From: Pseudomonadota bacterium
Lineage (GTDB): Bacteria; Pseudomonadota; Gammaproteobacteria; Burkholderiales; JBEEJL01
Reading direction: 5' to 3'
DNA: 64,000 nucleotides
Assembly (NCBI GenBank): GCA_043744215.1
Contig: JAYTVC010000050.1
Location: 94 to 64,093 of the forward strand
Part shown: in pieces, positions 4,076 to 15,983 of the stretch
Layout of the letters: each line of letters starts with the position of its first letter
How positions within the stretch are numbered: position 1 is the first letter of the stretch
The notes under the pieces: generated by a model
What the model was told of the DNA's origin: nothing
Database searches by the model: none
The model's input: only the letters and a program-made list of their open reading frames with translations
Position numbers and translations under genes: made by a program

Positions 4076-4309
4076 GCAGCCTGCGCCGCAGTACGCGATA
4101 TGGATCAAGGCGAAAGCATCGCCAACATTCGAGCGCAGACCTTAGTGATCGCAGGTACGCACGACGTTGCCACGCCGCCCGCCGACGGAAAATTTCTTGC
4201 AGACCACATCAAAGGCGCGCGCTATGTTGAATTGCCCGCCGCGCATATTTCCAACATCGAAGCGAGTGAAGCGTTTACACAAAACGTGTTGCAATTTCTT
4301 GCCACTTAA
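4076..4309 (+). pseudogene. pcaD: 3-oxoadipate enol-lactonase (alpha/beta hydrolase), C-terminal remnant only
   Basis: Only the last ~75 residues are present (..IRAQTLVIAGTHDVATPP...AAHISNIE..). The frame is closed by a stop at 4055-4057 and the ~190-aa N-terminus with the nucleophile is absent. Sits directly upstream of pcaC. Confidence 0.75.
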
Positions 4310-4346: not shown

Positions 4347-4733
4347 ATGGACGAACAGGAACGCTACAACAAAGGAATGGAAACGCGCCGCGCCGTGCTG
4401 GGCGACGCGTATGTCGACAAAACCATGAGCAAGCGCAACGCGTTCAACGAAGCATTCCAAGAGATGATCACCCGCCACGCATGGGGCGACATCTGGACAC
4501 GCCCCGGCCTGCCCAAACATTCGCGCAGCCTCATCACCGTCGCCATGCTCATCGCCCTCAATCGCGGCGACGAATTGAAATTGCATTTGCGCGGCGCAAT
4601 CACCAACGGCGTAACGCGCGACGAAATTAAAGAAGTGATGATGCAATCTGCCATCTACTGCGGCGTGCCTGCGGCCAACGCAGCGTTTCATATTGCCGAA
4701 GCATTGTTCACGGAGATGGATGCGGGGCGATAA
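4347..4733 (+). CDS. pcaC: 4-carboxymuconolactone decarboxylase
   Basis: 128 aa from the internal ATG (MDEQERYNKGMETRRAVLGD...). Carboxymuconolactone decarboxylase family pattern. Confidence 0.85.
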   Translation: MDEQERYNKGMETRRAVLGDAYVDKTMSKRNAFNEAFQEMITRHAWGDIWTRPGLPKHSRSLITVAMLIALNRGDELKLHLRGAITNGVTRDEIKEVMMQSAIYCGVPAANAAFHIAEALFTEMDAGR

Positions 4734-4744
4734 TGTAGTGCGAT

Positions 4745-4969
4745 CAAGCTGAAATATTTTTTGCTTTAGTTTTGTTTGAGAATTTTTCGAAATTATTTTA
4801 AGTGAAGTCGTTCGAAAATCAGCGAAAAATCATGCCCTAAAAATGGAGATCAGCAAATTTGATTCCGTAGCCCGCAAGTATGTGATGTAAAAAAAACCAA
4901 ACTGAAATAATATTCGGCAAGCTCAAAACAAAAAACCCTCTGGCGTGTTTTTTGTTGAGTGAATATTTT
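4745..4969 (+). repeat. Tandem ~200-bp units U1 (4745-4843) and truncated U2 (4844-4969), related to 5676-5900
   Basis: Shared blocks with 5676-5900: AGCGAAAAATCA(T/C)GCCCTAAAAA, TGGAGATCAGCAAATT(T/C)GATT, ACCAA(A/G)CTGAAATAA, TTTGTT(T)GA..AATTTTTC. Confidence 0.75.
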
Positions 4970-5058
4970 GTAGCTATAGCATCGCGGCCTGCTTCCAGAG
5001 CATGTGACTTTGATCGACAGCCCGACTGGTTGTAACTGTAGCACGCATGTGCTACAAT
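4968..5058 (+). promoter_or_regulatory. Putative parDE promoter/operator made of CRISPR-repeat-terminus-like hexamers
   Basis: TTGTAGCT 4968-4975; GTTGTAAC 5029-5036; palindrome TGTAGCAC-GCAT-GTGCTACA 5037-5056; extended -10 TGCTACAAT 5050-5058. GGAG at 5072-5075 and ATG at 5083. Confidence 0.5.
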
Positions 5059-5082
5059 TTAATTTTTGATCGGAGCGCAGCC

Positions 5083-5367
5083 ATGTCCACAACCACCATC
5101 CGTTTGCCGGAAGCACTCAAATCGCGTGTGGCTATCGCTGCCGAGAAGGCAGGCACGACTGCGCATAATTTTATTCTGGAGGCCATCTCAGAAAAGGCCG
5201 CCCAAGCTGAACAGCAGGCCGATTTTCATGAAGACGCCAACCGGCGCTACGCTAATCTGGTCGCGTCGGGCAAAACAATTTCCTGGGAAAAAATGCGCGG
5301 CTATCTCGAAGGAAAAGTCGTGGGCAAAACCGTTGCCCGCCCCGCAGCTAAAAAACTGGCTCGCTGA
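5083..5367 (+). CDS. Ribbon-helix-helix (CopG/ParD-like) type II antitoxin
   Basis: 94 aa from the internal ATG (MSTTTIRLPEALKSRVAIAAEKAGTTAHNFILEAI = RHH motif). Its stop lies 2 nt before the toxin start. Confidence 0.8.
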   Translation: MSTTTIRLPEALKSRVAIAAEKAGTTAHNFILEAISEKAAQAEQQADFHEDANRRYANLVASGKTISWEKMRGYLEGKVVGKTVARPAAKKLAR

Positions 5368-5369
5368 GC

Positions 5370-5666
5370 ATGGCCAGAATCGAACTGGCACCCGAAACTC
5401 AAAAAGACTTTGATCGCATACTTAACCATCTCGCACAATATGCTGTTGAGGACGCAACGGATCGAATCACAGAAATTATCCATGCCATAGAAGTATTGCA
5501 GCACAATCCACTAATCTGCAGACCAATCACCGTAGACATGCGCGAACTGGTCGTCGGGCGCAGCAGTCAAGGTTATGTCGCACTTTATCGTTATATCGGA
5601 CAGATCGATACAGTCTTTGTCTTGGCGATACGTAGCCAGCGTGAGGCGGGTTACAGCAAAAATTAA
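5370..5666 (+). CDS. ParE/RelE-family type II toxin
   Basis: 98 aa with a ParE-like pattern (..ILNHLAQY...YVALYRY...TVFVLAIRSQREAGY). Tightly coupled to the upstream RHH gene. Confidence 0.8.
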   Translation: MARIELAPETQKDFDRILNHLAQYAVEDATDRITEIIHAIEVLQHNPLICRPITVDMRELVVGRSSQGYVALYRYIGQIDTVFVLAIRSQREAGYSKN

Positions 5667-5675
5667 TCTTCTGTC

Positions 5676-5900
5676 ACCGGCAAAAAAATAATGCCCGAAA
5701 AAATGGAGATCAGCAAATTCGATTTTGTCGGCAGCAAACATGTAATAGTTAAAGAAACCAAGCTGAAATAATTTTTTGCTAGGTTGTTGAAGAAATTTAA
5801 AAGCCCGCAATGCGCGGGCTTTTTGTTTGAAGGAAATTTTTCTGCAAAATTATATTTGGAGAAGTAACTCAGAAATTAGCGAAAAATCACGCCCTAAAAA
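5676..5900 (+). repeat. Unit tail plus full tandem unit U3, related to 4745-4969
   Basis: Direct repeat of the blocks listed for 4745-4969. Contains an intact terminator and the candidate promoter TTGAAG-N18-TATATT (5827-5856) facing the array. Confidence 0.75.
5801..5825 (+). terminator. Rho-independent terminator downstream of parDE
   Basis: AAGCCCGC-AATGC-GCGGGCTT stem-loop followed by TTTTTG. Confidence 0.7.
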
Positions 5901-5917
5901 CGCGCGCGGGGCGCGCC

Positions 5918-5959
5918 GATTTAATTTTGACGGGGGTTTTTCCCCGTCGAAATTAAATC
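5918..5959 (+). other. 18-bp-stem hairpin abutting the first CRISPR repeat
   Basis: GATTTAATTTTGACGGGG / 6-nt loop / CCCCGTCGAAATTAAATC gives 17 Watson-Crick pairs plus one T.G. The stem ends at 5959 and repeat 1 starts at 5960. Preceded by the GC hairpin GCGCGC-GGG-GCGCGC (5902-5916). Confidence 0.8.
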
Positions 5960-6589
5960 GTTGTAGCTCCCTCTCTCACCCCGGACTGCTACAATGTCCA
6001 CGCTGCAATATTGTCGTAGTCGGCGGTTGTAGCTCCCTCTCTCACCCCGGACTGCTACAATAAGGACGGTGAAGAAAAAGCCGTCCCGTAGGTTGTAGCT
6101 CCCTCTCTCACCCCGGACTGCTACAATTGCTTGTCATATAAATCACCACCATCGTCAGTTGTAGCTCCCTCTCTCACCCCGGACTGCTACAATTCCCTTG
6201 ATCCCCGTAGTGCTCTTGTATCGGTTGTAGCTCCCTCTCTCACCCCGGACTGCTACAATTGGCGGGGTTTGCGGGTATGGTGTGCATTTGTTGTAGCTCC
6301 CTCTCTCACCCCGGACTGCTACAATATGTAATGTGCCAAAACCGCAACTCTGTTGGTTGTAGCTCCCTCTCTCACCCCGGACTGCTACAATTATTGCCGT
6401 CGCTGCCCGTAGTCCCGGTGCGTTGTAGCTCCCTCTCTCACCCCGGACTGCTACAATAAAATTTGCAACGAGAGTTTTTGGTAGCGGGTTGTAGCTCCCT
6501 CTCTCACCCCGGACTGCTACAATCCAACCCCTCAGCAACCGCGCGTATATCCGGTTGTAGCTCCCTCTCTCACCCCGGACTGCTACAAT
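5960..6589 (+). CRISPR. Type II-C CRISPR array, 10 repeats and 9 spacers
   Basis: Ten identical 36-bp repeats GTTGTAGCTCCCTCTCTCACCCCGGACTGCTACAAT start at 5960 with a 66-bp period, separated by 30-bp unique spacers. Each repeat ends in the TGCTACAAT extended -10, so the crRNA sense is the + strand. Confidence 0.97.
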
Positions 6590-6651: not shown

Positions 6652-6984
6652 TCAAAACAGCAGCATTTGATTCGCTTTGATGGCTTTTTCCTGAAACAGC
6701 GGCAACCCCACCAACAGTTTCATGCCGGCAAATTGTTTTTCTGTTACCGACAGGCAGCGCACTGACCCGGCAGGCGGCAGGTTATCGACCAAGCGTTTCA
6801 TGTGTTTTTTTTCGGCGTCGATGCCGTTGAGTATGCGTCCATAGATTGAAAATTGAATCATGTCGTAACCGTCGTTAATTAGAAAACGGCGGAATACGGT
6901 GTACGCCCGGCGCTCAGCGCGGGTGACAACAGGCAGATCAAACAACACGATGAGTCGCATATAACGTCGTGTTTCAGCGCCCAT
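6652..6984 (-). CDS. cas2: CRISPR-associated endoribonuclease Cas2
   Basis: 110 aa with MRLIVLFDLPV.. beta1 motif. Immediately downstream of cas1. An alternative start at 6960 is possible. Confidence 0.9.
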   Translation of the reverse strand: MGAETRRYMRLIVLFDLPVVTRAERRAYTVFRRFLINDGYDMIQFSIYGRILNGIDAEKKHMKRLVDNLPPAGSVRCLSVTEKQFAGMKLLVGLPLFQEKAIKANQMLLF

Positions 6985-6986
6985 GA

Positions 6987-7892
6987 CTACATATCGCGTT
7001 GATGCGCGCGCAGGCCTATCAACGTGGGCAGTTCGAGGGTGCCTTCCGCGCCGCTTTCGTAAATGCGCGCGAGGCTTTCAACGGCGGTTTCGATGGCATT
7101 GAGCGCGGATGTTGCGCCACTCGGCATGCCCACATCCACATTCAGCAGCGCGATGAGTTCTGCCTTGTCGCTGGGCAGCAGGTCGGCACTATCCGGGATG
7201 CGATGCTTGACGACATGCAGATCAACCAACGGACGGAAGGGTTCAATCAAATCATCCGCAAGATTAAATGCGTTTTGTTCGCTCGAGTGAAACAGCCCCA
7301 ATGAGGGCAATAAACCATGCGCGACCAACCCTCTCGCAATAGTGCCGCGAAGCACGGCGTAACCGTAATCGAGGGCCGAGTTGATCCAGCATTCTTTCCC
7401 TCGATGAAAATCCTTGCCGAATAGTTTGGCAAAATAAAAAGCCGCAGCTTGGCCCTCAACATGGCCGCTGTCGCCAGAGCGCACGCGAGCGGTGTAATCA
7501 GCGAGGCGGTCAGCGCCGTCGATTCCTGCTAATTTCAAACAGGCCGATTGATTGGCAATTTTTTTTCTGACTATGGCCGCCCAGGTTTGCTTCGCCACCG
7601 GGCGCGGCATGCCAAGTTGAAAACGCAACCAGCGTGTGGCGCGTGAGTGGCTGAGAAACGGCAAAAACACCCCGCTGGGGTGATGGGTATCACCCGTGGC
7701 AAAAAGGCTGATGCCATATTCGCCGCAGGCCGACAGCACGGGGTGCGTCAGCGAAATCTCGCGATGATTGAGCATGATGACCGCGATGTCCTCAAAGGGA
7801 ACGAACGCGGTCTGCTCCTGCTCAATCGCAAGGGAATAATGTTCGCGCCGCAGCTTGGCTGGGCGCGAGATCATGACGCTACGCCAAGTCAC
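6987..7892 (-). CDS. cas1: CRISPR-associated endonuclease Cas1 (type II)
   Basis: 301 aa with a Cas1 pattern (..ALDYGYAVLRGTIARGLVAHGLLPSLGLFH..NAFNLADDLIEPFRP). Overlaps the cas9 stop by 14 nt. Confidence 0.95.
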   Translation of the reverse strand: MTWRSVMISRPAKLRREHYSLAIEQEQTAFVPFEDIAVIMLNHREISLTHPVLSACGEYGISLFATGDTHHPSGVFLPFLSHSRATRWLRFQLGMPRPVAKQTWAAIVRKKIANQSACLKLAGIDGADRLADYTARVRSGDSGHVEGQAAAFYFAKLFGKDFHRGKECWINSALDYGYAVLRGTIARGLVAHGLLPSLGLFHSSEQNAFNLADDLIEPFRPLVDLHVVKHRIPDSADLLPSDKAELIALLNVDVGMPSGATSALNAIETAVESLARIYESGAEGTLELPTLIGLRAHQRDM

Positions 7893-11257: not shown

Positions 11258-11350
11258 TTTGTTGTGGCAGTCCGGGGTGAGAGCCGTTGTTACAATAAAG
11301 AATCGAAAGATTCTGTATCCAAACCCAGTGGAGAAATCCACTGGGTTTTT
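11258..11350 (+). ncRNA. tracrRNA
   Basis: The anti-repeat TTGTGGCAGTCCGGGGTGAGAG-CCGTTGTTACAAT is complementary to the CRISPR repeat with an Nme-like bulge. It is followed by the hairpin AGAATC-GAAA-GATTCT and the terminator AACCCAGTGGA-GAAA-TCCACTGGGTT + TTT. The 5' end is estimated. Confidence 0.85.
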
Positions 11351-11527: not shown

Positions 11528-12703
11528 TTACGCGTAAGCGCGCAAGCGTTTTGAGAACTGCCCCAACGCTTCGATGCCGCTGGCTTCGGCGCGGTGGCAC
11601 CAGTCTTCCAGTTGTTTCACCAGTTGTTCTTTGTTGAGGTTAGAGCGGCCCCAGAGGGCGGTGAGTTCCTGGCGCATGTTGTAGATGGTGTCGAGCACTT
11701 TGCTGGATTTTAATACTTCGCTTAGTGCAGCGCGGTCTTTTTCTTTCAGGTTGACGGCGTCGCTGTGCATGGAGCGTTGCAGTTTCTTTGCGGCGCGCTC
11801 GTCTTGCACGGCGGCGCTGGGGTGCATCAGGCGCTGGATTTCATCGGCGCAGGTTTGCTTAAGTGTGTGCGCATATTTCGCCAGCACGTCGTAACGGTGG
11901 GTGATGACGGCTTGCAAGGTGTCGGCGTCGCAGGCGGTTTTGCTGTCGTCGAAGCGGATTTTTTTCGCTTCGTTTTTCACTTTGGCGAGGCTGAGCATTT
12001 CGAGGCCGCGGATGTACATCCAGCCGATGTCGAATTCATACCAGCGGTTGGAAAATTTTGCCGAGGTGCCGTAAGCATGGTGGTTGTTGTGCAATTCTTC
12101 GCCGCCGATGAGGATGCCCCATGGCACGACGTTGCGCGATGCGTCGGCTGCTTCGAAGTTGCGATAGCCCCAGTAGTGGCCAATGCCGTTGATCACGCCA
12201 GTGGCCATGACGGGAATCCACGCCATTTGTATCGCCCAGATTGTCGCGCCGATGGGGCCGAACAATGCGAGGTCGATGATGGCCATGATTACCACGCCCC
12301 ACACGCTGCGTTTGGTGTAGATGTGGCGTTCCAGCCAGTCGTCCGGTGTGCCGTGGCCGTATTTTTCCATCGTCTCGGGAATTTTGGATTCGACGCGATA
12401 GAGTTCGGCGCCTTCGAGCAATAATTTTTTGATGCCCCAGATTTGCGGGCTGTGGGGGTCGTCTACCGTTTCCACTTTCGCGTGATGCTTGCGGTGGATG
12501 GCGGCAAATTCTTTGGTGACCATGCCGGTAGTGAGCCACAACCAAAAGCGGAAAAAGTGGCTGGGGATGGCGTGCAATTCGAGAGCGCGATGTGACTGGC
12601 AGCGGTGCAAAAATACGGTGACGGAAACAATGGTGATGTGCGTGAGCACGAGGGTGACTAAAACATAACCCCACCATGGCATATCAATCAGGCCTAATTG
12701 CAT
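11528..12703 (-). CDS. Acyl-CoA/acyl-lipid fatty acid desaturase (membrane di-iron)
   Basis: 391 aa with His boxes HRCQSH, HRKHH, HNNHH, and N-terminal TM helices. Confidence 0.85.
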   Translation of the reverse strand: MQLGLIDMPWWGYVLVTLVLTHITIVSVTVFLHRCQSHRALELHAIPSHFFRFWLWLTTGMVTKEFAAIHRKHHAKVETVDDPHSPQIWGIKKLLLEGAELYRVESKIPETMEKYGHGTPDDWLERHIYTKRSVWGVVIMAIIDLALFGPIGATIWAIQMAWIPVMATGVINGIGHYWGYRNFEAADASRNVVPWGILIGGEELHNNHHAYGTSAKFSNRWYEFDIGWMYIRGLEMLSLAKVKNEAKKIRFDDSKTACDADTLQAVITHRYDVLAKYAHTLKQTCADEIQRLMHPSAAVQDERAAKKLQRSMHSDAVNLKEKDRAALSEVLKSSKVLDTIYNMRQELTALWGRSNLNKEQLVKQLEDWCHRAEASGIEALGQFSKRLRAYA

Positions 12704-12811
12704 GTAATTCCTCCAGAGAAAACGGGTTGTTTAAAACTGCATAACGCTGATTTTACTTGAAGCCGGGTGTCGCGCAAGGAAATAATTGTGTCGATAAAAT
12801 TGAACTAGGTC

Positions 12812-14098
12812 TTAATTGGGCGTGCGCTGCGGATGTTCTGTAACTTGTTGTTTTATAACAATTTCTTTCTGTGGATACGGCGTCACGATATCAAGCGTTT
12901 GAAATTTGTGCCAGATGTCGAGATAAATCGACGACTTTACCGGCTGCAAACCGTTTTGCGGATCAGCCACCCAGAAGGCCAATTCCAGTTCGATACCGTT
13001 GTCGCCAAAATTTTTGATAAAGGTTTCTGCTGGCGGATCTTTCAACACGCGCGGATGTTTTTCTGCGCAGGCTGTCGTGGCTTGCAGCACCTCATCGAGA
13101 TTGCAAGCGTAGCTCACACTCAAAGGCAAACGCACTAAAACTTTTGGATCGGTATACGAATGATTGATGACCGTGTTGGTTACAAATGTTTCGTTGGGAA
13201 TAATCGCTTCGGTGCCGTCGCTGGTTTTTACTACGGTGTAACGCGTATGCAATTGCGTGACCACGCCGACGCGGTTTTCAAGGGTGATGAGATCGCCGAT
13301 GCGCACTGAGCGATCGAGCAAAATGATAAAGCCACTGATGTAATTGCTGGCGATTTTTTGCAAGCCGATTCCGAGGCCGACACCGAGCGCGCCGCTGAAC
13401 ACCGACAACAAAGTGAGGTCGATGCCGACCAGCGGCAACACGATGAGCACGGCAATGACCAGCAATACAGCGCGCGCAATTTTGGTGAACACTACGCGCA
13501 GGCTGAGGTCGAGGCCTTCGGAACGCATCAGCCGGTTTTCTGACAGGCGTGCGAGCCACAAGGCAATCAGTAAAGTGATGACGACGGATACCACCGCGAG
13601 CAAAATTTGCAGCACGGAAATTTCCTGCTTGCCGACTTTGAACGAGAGCTCGCGCAAAAATTCTGTTAGCGGTTCGGCAAGGCCCGTGACATACAGCGCT
13701 ACGCCGATCCACATCGTGTAGGCGATGACGCGCTCCCATGCTTTTAATAATGCGCTGGGCGGAAACACATGACGCAGCACGTAAATAAAAAAACGTATCA
13801 GCGCAAATGACAGCAGCAGCGCGAGCGCGATTTTCATCGTCTGCACCGAGCCTGATTTCGTCATGACATTTTTGCTGATCCACACCAGAGTCAGCGCGAG
13901 CAGCGGAAACAACAGGCGATTTGCGCTGCCCGCGCCGAATTTCCATGTCGGCACAGGCGCTGACAAGCGCGGACGGATGGCGCGCGCCAGCAACCACGCC
14001 ACCGCGAGGCAGGCGGCGATAACGCCGAGCTGCATTTGCACGCGGGCAGTTTTCAGAGAAGTGAAAACGATATCAAAAAATTCGGTAAATTCGTTCAC
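12812..14098 (-). CDS. Mechanosensitive ion channel family protein (MscS-like)
   Basis: 428 aa with multiple TM helices and an MscS core (..GLQKIASNYISGFIILLDRSVRIGDLITL..). Confidence 0.85.
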   Translation of the reverse strand: MNEFTEFFDIVFTSLKTARVQMQLGVIAACLAVAWLLARAIRPRLSAPVPTWKFGAGSANRLLFPLLALTLVWISKNVMTKSGSVQTMKIALALLLSFALIRFFIYVLRHVFPPSALLKAWERVIAYTMWIGVALYVTGLAEPLTEFLRELSFKVGKQEISVLQILLAVVSVVITLLIALWLARLSENRLMRSEGLDLSLRVVFTKIARAVLLVIAVLIVLPLVGIDLTLLSVFSGALGVGLGIGLQKIASNYISGFIILLDRSVRIGDLITLENRVGVVTQLHTRYTVVKTSDGTEAIIPNETFVTNTVINHSYTDPKVLVRLPLSVSYACNLDEVLQATTACAEKHPRVLKDPPAETFIKNFGDNGIELELAFWVADPQNGLQPVKSSIYLDIWHKFQTLDIVTPYPQKEIVIKQQVTEHPQRTPN

Positions 14099-14114
14099 GG
14101 TTGTGTGCCCGCTC

Positions 14115-14696
14115 TCAAGGCAATAACGTGGAGTGGCTCAAATGTTTTTGCCAGTTGGCAAGATAACTTGCGGCCAGCGCGCCGTTGCCGCTGATAAGCA
14201 ATACATTTTCCGCGTTATTGTTTTCTGCCGCCTGGGTAAAATTATAGCTGCCGGTAATCACCACGGGCTTGCTGTCTTTAGCATCAATGATCATGACTTT
14301 ATTGTGGGCAATGGCGTGGTCGCCATCGATATAAATTTTTGCGCCCGCCGCTTTTATGCCGTCGAGTTTGAGTTTGGTGAAGCCGTTGAGGTTGGCGTAT
14401 TCGCCGTCGTCTTCGATCAATTGCACCGCTACGCCGCGCTGCGCTGCTGCGGCCAGCGCCTTGGCGATGGCCGTGTTGGTGAATCCGTAGGCTTGTATCT
14501 TGATGTCTTTTTTTGCCTCGCCGATTGCGCTGACAATGCGCTTGGCGATCTTGTCGCCGGGTGTGAATAGCGATTCGATGGTGCCGCTTTCGGTCGCTGC
14601 ATCGGCCAAGGGCGCGCGGGCGGCCGCTTCATGGGCGCAAGCGCCGAGTAAAAACGGTATGCCCAATACGAGGAAACGCAGCGTTGAACGCATCAT
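14115..14696 (-). CDS. Secreted phospholipase D-family (Nuc-like) endonuclease
   Basis: 193 aa with a signal peptide (..FLLGACAHE) and a single HKD motif HNKVMIID..GSYNFT. Confidence 0.8.
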   Translation of the reverse strand: MMRSTLRFLVLGIPFLLGACAHEAAARAPLADAATESGTIESLFTPGDKIAKRIVSAIGEAKKDIKIQAYGFTNTAIAKALAAAAQRGVAVQLIEDDGEYANLNGFTKLKLDGIKAAGAKIYIDGDHAIAHNKVMIIDAKDSKPVVITGSYNFTQAAENNNAENVLLISGNGALAASYLANWQKHLSHSTLLP

Positions 14697-14724
14697 AAAT
14701 TATTGTTAATAATCAAATAGTTAC
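14697..14724 (-). repeat. 28-bp IHF-core element, copy 2
   Basis: AAATTATTGTTAATAATCAAATAGTTAC. It fills the gap between the rsmB-like stop and the PLD-nuclease ATG. Confidence 0.65.
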
Positions 14725-15983
14725 AAAGATGCACGGCGTTCCAGCACGGCGGCAAAAAAACCGTCGGTGGCATGCATGTGTGGAAATAATTTCAACGTCA
14801 CGCCGGTATCGAGCGCGATTTTTTGTCGCGCCAAAATTTCCGCTACGTTCATTTGTTTGAAGTCGTGGTTCGCTGCCAGAAAATTTGCCACAATCATTTC
14901 GTTTTCTTCGGCCAATAAACTGCACGTTGCATAAACCAAACGGCCGCCGGGTTTTACCAGACGCGCTGCGGCGACAAGTATGGCGAATTGTTTTTGCGTC
15001 AATTCATCAATCGCATCAGGAGACTGGCGCCATTTCAAATCCGGATTACGGCGCAGCGTGCCAAGGCCGCTGCACGGCGCATCAACCAGCACGCGATCCA
15101 TTTTCCCTGCAAGCCGCTTGATGCGCAAATCGTTTTCGTTGTCGATGCGCGCGGGGTGCACATTGCTGAGGCCAGAACGTTTGAGGCGTGGCTTCAGATT
15201 GGTCAAACGTTTTTCCGATACATCAAACGCGTACAGCCGGCCCTGGCTTTGCATCATCGCGCCCAGTGCGAGGGTTTTGCCGCCGGCCCCGGCGCAAAAA
15301 TCCGCCACCATGTCATTGCGTTTGGGTTCCATAATTATGGCCAGCAGCTGGCTGCCTTCATCCTGGATTTCGATCTTGCCATCGAGAAATAATGCATGCT
15401 TGTTCAGCGCCGGTTTGCCTTTGACGCGAATGCCAACGGGCGAGTAGGGCGTTGGCGTTGCCTCGATGCCGCTTTGTTTCAACGCCAACAACACATCGTG
15501 GCGATTGGTGCGCAAAGTATTGACGCGCAGATCCAACGGCGCGGGGTTTTGCAAACTGCGTGCGATGGCGAGCAAGTCGTCATCGCTCATTTGCGCACGC
15601 AGGGATGCCACCATCCAGTCGGGCATGTCGGCTTGCACGGCCAACGGCAAATTATCGGTGGGTTGGCTTTTCAATTCGATGATAAATTTTTCTTCTTCGT
15701 CGCGCAGTAGCGGTGCCAGTTCTTTCATGCCGATGCCTTGGAGTTTTACCAACGCGCCGAGGGCCATTTGGCGTGGCGTGGCATGGGGCATCAGGTGTTC
15801 AAGCAGGCGACGGCGGCGCAATACGGCGTAAGTGGTTTCGGCGATGAAGGCGCGGTCACCCTGGCCCAACTCAGGTTGGTCGCGGAAAAAAAATTTCAGC
15901 GATACATCCGCCGGCGCGCGCAGCGGCAGGATAATGTGAAGGGCATGAGATAAATGGCTGAGTTGCGTGGAGGTGATAGGCAT
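14721..15983 (-). CDS. RsmB/NOP2/Sun-family RNA cytosine-C5 methyltransferase
   Basis: 420 aa. SAM motif DFCAGAGGKT and catalytic DAPCSG..TCS motifs. Confidence 0.85.
   Translation of the reverse strand: MPITSTQLSHLSHALHIILPLRAPADVSLKFFFRDQPELGQGDRAFIAETTYAVLRRRRLLEHLMPHATPRQMALGALVKLQGIGMKELAPLLRDEEEKFIIELKSQPTDNLPLAVQADMPDWMVASLRAQMSDDDLLAIARSLQNPAPLDLRVNTLRTNRHDVLLALKQSGIEATPTPYSPVGIRVKGKPALNKHALFLDGKIEIQDEGSQLLAIIMEPKRNDMVADFCAGAGGKTLALGAMMQSQGRLYAFDVSEKRLTNLKPRLKRSGLSNVHPARIDNENDLRIKRLAGKMDRVLVDAPCSGLGTLRRNPDLKWRQSPDAIDELTQKQFAILVAAARLVKPGGRLVYATCSLLAEENEMIVANFLAANHDFKQMNVAEILARQKIALDTGVTLKLFPHMHATDGFFAAVLERRASL

Follow-up and report, generated by a model that had tools for sequence, protein, structure and literature searches.

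The 64,000-nt stretch of the Pseudomonadota contig JAYTVC010000050.1 analysed here (the window, meaning that whole stretch) very probably carries, at 5030–5666, a self-contained type II toxin–antitoxin (TA) cassette. It consists of a promoter-operator, an antitoxin from a large uncharacterised ParD/CopG-like ribbon-helix-helix (RHH) family and a toxin of the ParE/RelE superfamily, and it lies upstream of a CRISPR (clustered regularly interspaced short palindromic repeat) array. A sequence-only reading of the window had proposed that the region before parD is assembled from pieces of the CRISPR repeat, either as decayed repeats that now drive the TA operon or as an operator through which the antitoxin could also contact the array. 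The strings and coordinates behind that proposal (at 4968, 5029, 5037 and 5049, GGAG at 5072–5075 and the ATG at 5083) are all present as it gave them. As judged from comparison of sequences, 5030–5058 is a cassette-borne RHH-antitoxin operator that overlaps an extended −10 promoter. Its likeness to the repeat points to coincidence, namely convergence on TGnTAnnnT plus dyad symmetry, and not to shared ancestry or regulation.

The palindrome TGTAGCAC-GCAT-GTGCTACA fills 5037–5056 with perfect 8-nt arms, directly after GTTGTAAC (5029–5036), and its right half is contained in GTGCTACAAT (5049–5058). A consensus scan found TTGTAA (5030–5035), a 17-nt spacer and TACAAT (5053–5058) with TG before the −10, in agreement with the promoter geometry proposed earlier for parDE. 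The 3′ end of the palindrome is 26 nt from the ATG of parD.

A scan of one genome per species returned 555 loci with ParD relatives, and the best 80 (59–77% identity) were examined. These loci come from diverse Beta- and Gammaproteobacteria, including Xanthomonas, Rhodanobacter, Luteimonas, Methylibium, Thiobacillus, Gallionellaceae and Rhodocyclales; our operator counts use the 78 loci whose upstream sequence is 120 nt or longer. TGTAGCAC-N4-GTGCTACA(t)T was present at 13/16 or better in 76 of the 78 upstream regions, 21–45 nt before the ATG (28 perfect sites, 32 at 15/16, 13 at 14/16 and three at 13/16). Core positions are 80–100% conserved, with the central N4 and both flanks variable. The palindrome overlaps the −10 in all 76 conserved sites: two bases 3′ of it complete the hexamer in all members (TACATT in 35, TACAGT in 11, TACCAT in seven, TACACT and TACAAT in five each), and GTGC always precedes, giving TGn. 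The closest relatives, P0002 (78%, locus L084) and P0003 (77%, loci L085–L088), carry the same operator site. Close relatives also have TTGnnn at the same offset (−7 to −2 from the palindrome), reading TTGTTA in L030, TTGCTG in L007 and L084, TTGTCG in L009 and TTGCCG in L023 and L014, and GTTGTAAC is therefore taken to hold the −35 of the cassette. We also considered GTTGTAAC, with its TGTAAC, as a third half-site and rejected it, considering that it has three operator mismatches (two at 98–99% positions) and coincides with the −35.

In 79 of the 80 loci parD is immediately followed by a gene for a ParE homologue, and the contig ends in the 80th. For most loci, DNA homology to the cassette begins at 5036–5038, with 5026 as the earliest start, and it stops at ~5654–5667, near the parE stop; the flanks of the window outside the cassette matched none of the ParD loci. 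These limits indicate that the palindrome and the −10 (5037–5058) belong to a mobile cassette, not to the host or to the array. Across 547 kb (the 80 loci together with L001, in which the window's own region occurs a second time), we found no CRISPR-like array, no sequence within 12 mismatches of the repeat and no cas9, cas1 or cas2 homologue; the loci of the closest relatives, L084–L088, have no CRISPR array. A distant-mode blastn search of the cassette against a plasmid collection returned no match.

With regard to the proteins, parD and parE are co-directional with the antitoxin first, 2 nt separate the parD stop from the parE ATG, and the array follows downstream on the same strand. The toxin matches Pfam PF05016 ParE_toxin (E=6.6e-10, 39.9 bits, cut-off 23) and reaches 22.3 against TIGR02385 RelE_StbE, under the cut-off of 27.9. 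The antitoxin family comprises 2105 proteins at E≤1e-3, many of them 65–78% identical, and its N-terminus MSTTTIR, the presumed DNA-reading beta-strand, is invariant. The family profile matches structures of the CopG-family antitoxin CopASO (7etr, E=3e-6; 6iya, 3.5e-4). An AlphaFold2 (AF2) model of the antitoxin (mean predicted local distance difference test score, pLDDT, 81) begins with an extended N-terminus, after which come helices at 10–23, 27–61 and 68–80, and the highest-probability Foldseek matches of the N-terminal ~40 residues are the RHH proteins Arc (0.98), VapB26 (0.97) and AtaR (0.97). The profile match, the AF2 model and the Foldseek probabilities are consistent with an N-terminal RHH domain, and the gene order, the toxin superfamily, the RHH antitoxin and the promoter-overlapping dyad operator are together those of a type II TA system.

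We infer ParD binding, repression and the transcription start site (TSS) in the following way. ParD dimers would set their N-terminal beta-ribbon (T3-T4-T5-I6-R7, invariant) on both halves of TGTAGCAC-N4-GTGCTACA. The right half would double as the TGn-extended −10, TGCTACAAT, and the left half would fill the spacer beside the −35 TTGTAA. Since the operator spans both the promoter spacer and the −10, its occupancy would shut out RNA polymerase and the operon would repress itself. ParE would be expected to modulate DNA binding by ParD, as reported for CopASO/ParESO. The cassette would have come with its own control region, and its place beside the cas-distal end of the array could be due to chance or to the usual clustering of defence genes. 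Covariation between protein and DNA is unusable as binding evidence here because the beta-strand and the operator core are both nearly invariant.

Features of the cassette, its bracketing repeats and the neighbouring CRISPR-cas locus, in window coordinates
Feature	Position	Strand	Remarks
Y0 tail fragment	4745–4782		
X1 / X3 pair	4783–4843 / 5840–5900		Imperfect direct repeat
Host repeat Y1	~4825–4970 (also given 4839–4970)	+	Left bracket; ~75–80% identical to Y2
TTGTAGCT, identical to repeat positions 2–9	4968–4975	+	Tail of host repeat Y1, outside the cassette
−35 hexamer TTGTAA (core of GTTGTAAC)	5030–5035	+	Consensus scan
Operator palindrome TGTAGCAC-GCAT-GTGCTACA, putative ParD (RHH) site	5037–5056	.	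Family conservation, matrix score
Extended −10 TGCTACAAT, overlapping the right operator half	5050–5058	+	Consensus scan, family −10s
Shine-Dalgarno GGAG	5072–5075	+	7 nt 5′ of the ATG (5083); kept there in most homologues
parD-like RHH antitoxin, 94 aa	5083–5367	+	2105 homologues
ParE/RelE-superfamily toxin, 98 aa	5370–5666	+	Pfam ParE_toxin PF05016
Host repeat Y2	5685–5845		Right bracket, paralogue of Y1
Terminator-like hairpin and T run	5799–5830	+	Inside Y2, between parDE and the array; putative function
Type II-C CRISPR array	5960–6589	+	Ten identical 36-nt repeats; context, outside the operator
cas2	6652–6984	-	
cas1	6987–7892	-	
cas9, 1118 aa	7879–11235	-	TIGR01865, E=3.9e-230
tracrRNA-type anti-repeat GTTGTGGCAGTCCGGGGTGAGAGCCGTTGTTACAAT	11261–11296	+	8 mismatches to the repeat reverse complement

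Several observations weigh against this interpretation, which needs to be read with them in mind. The operator role of the palindrome is deduced from its conservation and position, and the inspection of the homologous loci covered 4–8 kb at each (4-kb flanks). The antitoxin has no Pfam match, its NCBIfam RelB-like match lies under the cut-off, and the Foldseek E-values of its RHH matches are not significant. The window is also unusual within its own family: the repeat-likeness of its upstream region is reached by only 3/78 loci with words of k=6, 1/78 with k=7, 3/78 with k=8 and 1/78 by local alignment. Its −10 is the less common TACAAT (5/76 sites), and it has an extra TTGTAGCT. It is this TACAAT variant together with the stray 8-mer that puts the window in the upper tail, a position to be expected for a case that was chosen for looking repeat-like.

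The repeat to which the control region was likened, GTTGTAGCTCCCTCTCTCACCCCGGACTGCTACAAT (termini also written GTTGTAGC...GCTACAAT, 5′ and 3′ ends), recurs ten times with a 66-bp period. The 3′ end of 10/10 repeats is TGCTACAAT, an extended −10 (TGnTACAAT) that points into the next spacer on the + strand, and repeat-embedded promoters for CRISPR RNA (crRNA) are known from the II-C systems of Neisseria meningitidis, N. lactamica and Campylobacter jejuni (Zhang et al. 2013, Dugar et al. 2013, summarised in review PMC8616872). The likeness itself is measurable. Exact repeat 6-mers cover 30 of 120 upstream bases compared with a mean of 3.25 +/- 4.4 in 5000 random 120-mers of the window, none of which reached 30, and the 33 occurrences of TGTAGC in the 64-kb window divide into 20 in the repeats, three in 4969–5056 and 10 elsewhere.

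Four sources could account for this likeness. The repeat 3′ end and the right half of the operator would both be extended −10 elements, in which TGnTAnnnT fixes 5/9 of the shared positions. Dyad symmetry is common to both elements, in the operator to suit a symmetric repressor and in the II-C repeat via its complementary termini, so that one coincidence would show twice. The −35 (TTGnnn) would contribute "GTTGTA", and the last source would be the lone stray 8-mer at 4968. Pieces of the same kind turn up in family members that have no array nearby: GTTGTAGC occurs at 7/8 or better in 27/78 CRISPR-less upstream regions (seven exact), and exact GTGCTACAAT occurs in 5/78. As for the stray TTGTAGCT, repeat-derived 8-mers number 29 in the window outside the array and the tracrRNA (trans-activating CRISPR RNA) region, so that ~0.03–0.06 would be expected in the ~65 non-cassette bases. 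The same 8-mer also stands beside the −10 of the CRISPR-less loci L085–L088. We judge the copy at 4968 to be a chance match, a mild coincidence found after the fact.

It had been proposed that 4968–5058 consists of CRISPR repeats that once stood at the end of the array, have decayed and now serve as a TA promoter. The strong enrichment of repeat-derived words over the genome background, the 62-bp distance between the two repeat-like starts (against a 66-bp array period) and the place of the window among the top 1–4% of its own family for repeat-likeness would be consistent with such an origin. Against it, the palindrome and the −10 travel with the cassette in 76/78 CRISPR-less loci, close relatives have the −35 at the homologous position, and the same upstream sequence stands before parDE in array-less loci, an outcome that undoes the proposal for 5029–5058 on its own terms. 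The 62-bp spacing pairs the −35 of the cassette with an 8-mer in an unrelated host repeat, Y1, and the paralogue Y2 differs at the aligned place, reading TTTCTGCA where Y1 has TTGTAGCT. The Rfam covariance model CRISPR-DR34 matches 10/10 repeats of the array on the + strand at 38 bits each and reports nothing at 4968–5058 at E≤1, and thus does not confirm the view of 5029–5058 as a 30-nt repeat that had its centre replaced; an ungapped repeat match with 14 or fewer mismatches was likewise lacking in 4968–5058. Nor was the cas-distal end of the array confirmed as an old end with decayed repeats: the repeat nearest parDE is identical to the other nine, so there is no decay gradient, and the cas-distal end is the upstream end for crRNA transcription. 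Finally, the site is 900 bp away from the array, with the cassette and host repeats in between. We regard a fossil-repeat origin as scarcely credible. A hairpin reading of the palindrome, as a terminator for upstream transcription or a structure in the 5′ untranslated region instead of a protein operator, is to us just as hard to credit. A terminator scan does pick 5037–5056 (8-bp stem, 4-nt loop) followed by ATTTAATTTT, but this T-rich tail is not kept in the homologues, on which ground we rejected the terminator; the arms are kept in sequence, beyond mere pairing, and the right arm is the −10 in all members, which would place the hairpin upstream of the likely TSS.

The other proposal, that the region is an RHH operator made of TGTAGC-type half-sites, held in its first part, considering that such an operator is found in 76/78 cassettes. 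Its second clause, in which ParD would also bind the ten repeats at their TGTAGC/GCTACA termini and tune the crRNA promoters, did not fare as well, and we hold it to be very unlikely. In its favour, the repeat termini equal operator half-sites at 7/8 and the right one overlaps the extended −10 of the repeat; furthermore, CopASO, an RHH antitoxin of a ParE toxin, cross-represses the pemK/pemI promoter, which carries a highly similar motif (PMC8706911). We built a 22-nt weight matrix from the 76 homologous operator sites. It gives 33.2 bits at 5037 (family median 30.7, minimum 15.2), as against a best of −0.9 bits for a full site anywhere inside the array, where the half-sites stand 16 nt apart and not four as in the operator, and so form no full site. 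Each repeat half-site also mismatches an operator position conserved at 98–99%: TGTAGCtC reaches 6.9 of a possible 15.2 bits, with its mismatch where half-sites have A in 98%, and the other terminus, cTGCTACA, has its mismatch at a 99% conserved position. Thirty-five other 8-mer sites in the window outscore the repeat half-site, the last of them being TGTTGCAC at 7.0. Binding of CopASO needed both inverted repeats (PMC8706911), 0/80 of the family members examined adjoin such an array, and an array with the identical repeat (in contig L082, described below) has a different neighbour and no operator. The one other operator-like site of the window, TGTGGCATTTTTTTGCTACAGC at 87–108, has 3/16 core mismatches and 12.7 bits, which is under the family minimum of 15.2, and is probably due to chance.

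A weaker form of such contact can be imagined, in which single ParD dimers bind the 7/8 half-sites at the repeat termini weakly and dampen or time crRNA transcription; in a softer variant, cas-distal TA modules (parDE here, MNT-HepT in L082) would stabilise II-C loci by addiction. We would give these ideas only the slimmest of chances. If true, the contact between ParD and the repeats would be an accidental but selectable regulatory link from a protein TA system to CRISPR. The preferred interpretation, a cassette-borne operator with a coincidental likeness to the repeat, calls for no such link.

The layout of the array and the cas genes is that of type II-C. The anti-repeat GTTGTGGCAGTCCGGGGTGAGAGCCGTTGTTACAAT lies 26 nt beyond the start of cas9 and reads away from it. 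Two strong hairpins stand immediately 5′ of the first repeat, at 5902–5960: one is the GC-only GCGCGCGGGGCGCGC (5902–5916), and the other is a 19-bp inverted repeat, 95% complementary (5917–5935 / 5942–5960), whose last base is the first base of repeat 1. Possible roles of the hairpins are to stop read-through from parDE or to serve as a leader element. When metagenomes were scanned for the exact 36-nt repeat, the only contigs returned were L082 and L083, which overlap and belong to another host, rich in GC. The cas-distal flank of these contigs bears no relation to the window, so that they offer no parDE-less comparator, and no ParD operator was detected in the surroundings of the L082 array. 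The cas-distal end of the array in L082 (Ga0079301_1000046) encodes, at 880–1660, a TA pair made up of an MNT nucleotidyltransferase (PF01909) with a HepT/HEPN RNase (PF01934); L083 has the same sequence. The first repeat there takes part in a leader-repeat hairpin, in which its 5′ end is paired to an inverted copy immediately upstream of it (GGGAGCTACAACGGTTGC / GCAACCGTTGTAGCTCCC). Two unrelated TA modules thus stand at the same end of arrays with one shared repeat.

The cassette is bracketed by host repeats in the order Y0 tail, X1, Y1, parDE, Y2, X3, an imperfect arrangement that resembles tandem units. Neither X nor Y found a match in the 80 ParD loci or in Rfam. Each Y copy ends in an intrinsic-terminator-like hairpin; for the one in Y2, the scan gave an 11-pair stem (5823..5799) on the - strand, and the same stem followed by TTTTTGTTT can be read on the +. 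X and Y are not CRISPR repeats; they suggest that a small tandem unit before the array received parDE as an insertion or was duplicated along with it. Both Y copies contain a mini open reading frame (ORF; 4843–4890 and 5703–5771, 15 and 22 codons) that starts ATGGAGATCAGCAAATT(T/C)GAT and encodes MEISKFD...; the difference at its start is synonymous (TTT/TTC), and there is no obvious Shine-Dalgarno sequence. The ORF may stand for a small peptide, for a gene of a small RNA or for nothing at all. Further upstream, a 69-aa ORF (4100–4309) aligns with alpha/beta-hydrolase models (Abhydrolase_4/1) in no more than their C-terminal part and looks like a truncated 3′ hydrolase remnant; just after it comes a gene of the CMD family (PF02627, carboxymuconolactone decarboxylase family, ~4349–4733). 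Among the homologous loci, L084 encodes an nSTAND3-domain protein and an AAA_15/AAA_21 ATPase (11880–15770) ~3.5 kb downstream of parDE, a neighbourhood like that of a defence island, without CRISPR.

For CRISPR biology, the proposed link between a protein TA system and II-C repeat promoters is unsupported and matters little. The case also serves as an example of how an extended −10 plus dyad symmetry can imitate the termini of CRISPR repeats, and it advises caution with short repeat-like words near arrays. A literature search for both operator half-sites returned unrelated papers only.

Among known systems, the closest solved relative of the antitoxin by sequence profile (E=3e-6) is CopASO of the ParESO-CopASO pair from the Shewanella oneidensis prophage CP4So (PDB 7etr, 6iya), which represses its own operon via two inverted repeats in the promoter (PMC8706911). 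CopASO no longer bound once these palindromic repeats were destroyed, and regulation depended on both of them (PMC8706911). The relationship is distant, however, and the CopASO operator is GTANTAC-N3-GTANTAC as opposed to TGTAGCAC-N4-GTGCTACA here. CopASO is also prophage-borne and cross-regulates a second TA promoter, whereas our cassette is chromosomal and intergenic beside a CRISPR array, with no second full site in the window. The predicted N-terminal fold of the antitoxin is consistent with that of the classical RHH proteins (Arc, CopG, FitA, AtaR, VapB26 and ParD of RK2), from which it differs in its lack of a Pfam RHH match and of significant Foldseek E-values. Dimers of RHH proteins recognise short sub-sites, in dyad or tandem arrangement, overlapping the promoter.

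With the II-C repeat promoters the parDE promoter shares the 9-mer TGCTACAAT of the repeat ends, and the Neisseria repeat ends in a similar extended −10. The parDE −10 differs in that it sits in a conventional −35/−10 promoter with an operator, is inherited with the cassette and belongs to no 36-nt repeat. CreTA, an RNA-based TA system that safeguards CRISPR-Cas loci, relies on the Cas effector for its mechanism. Here too a TA module adjoins a CRISPR-cas locus, but it is a protein TA with an autonomous operator and no sequence-level dependence on the array. Next to these systems, 5030–5058 is very probably a type II TA control region of an ordinary and known kind, and the operator of this family does not appear to have been described previously. 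The operator-promoter consensus TGTAGCAC-N4-GTGCTACAtT can be used for the annotation of a large unnamed ParD/CopG-like family (>2000 proteins, 555 genome loci).

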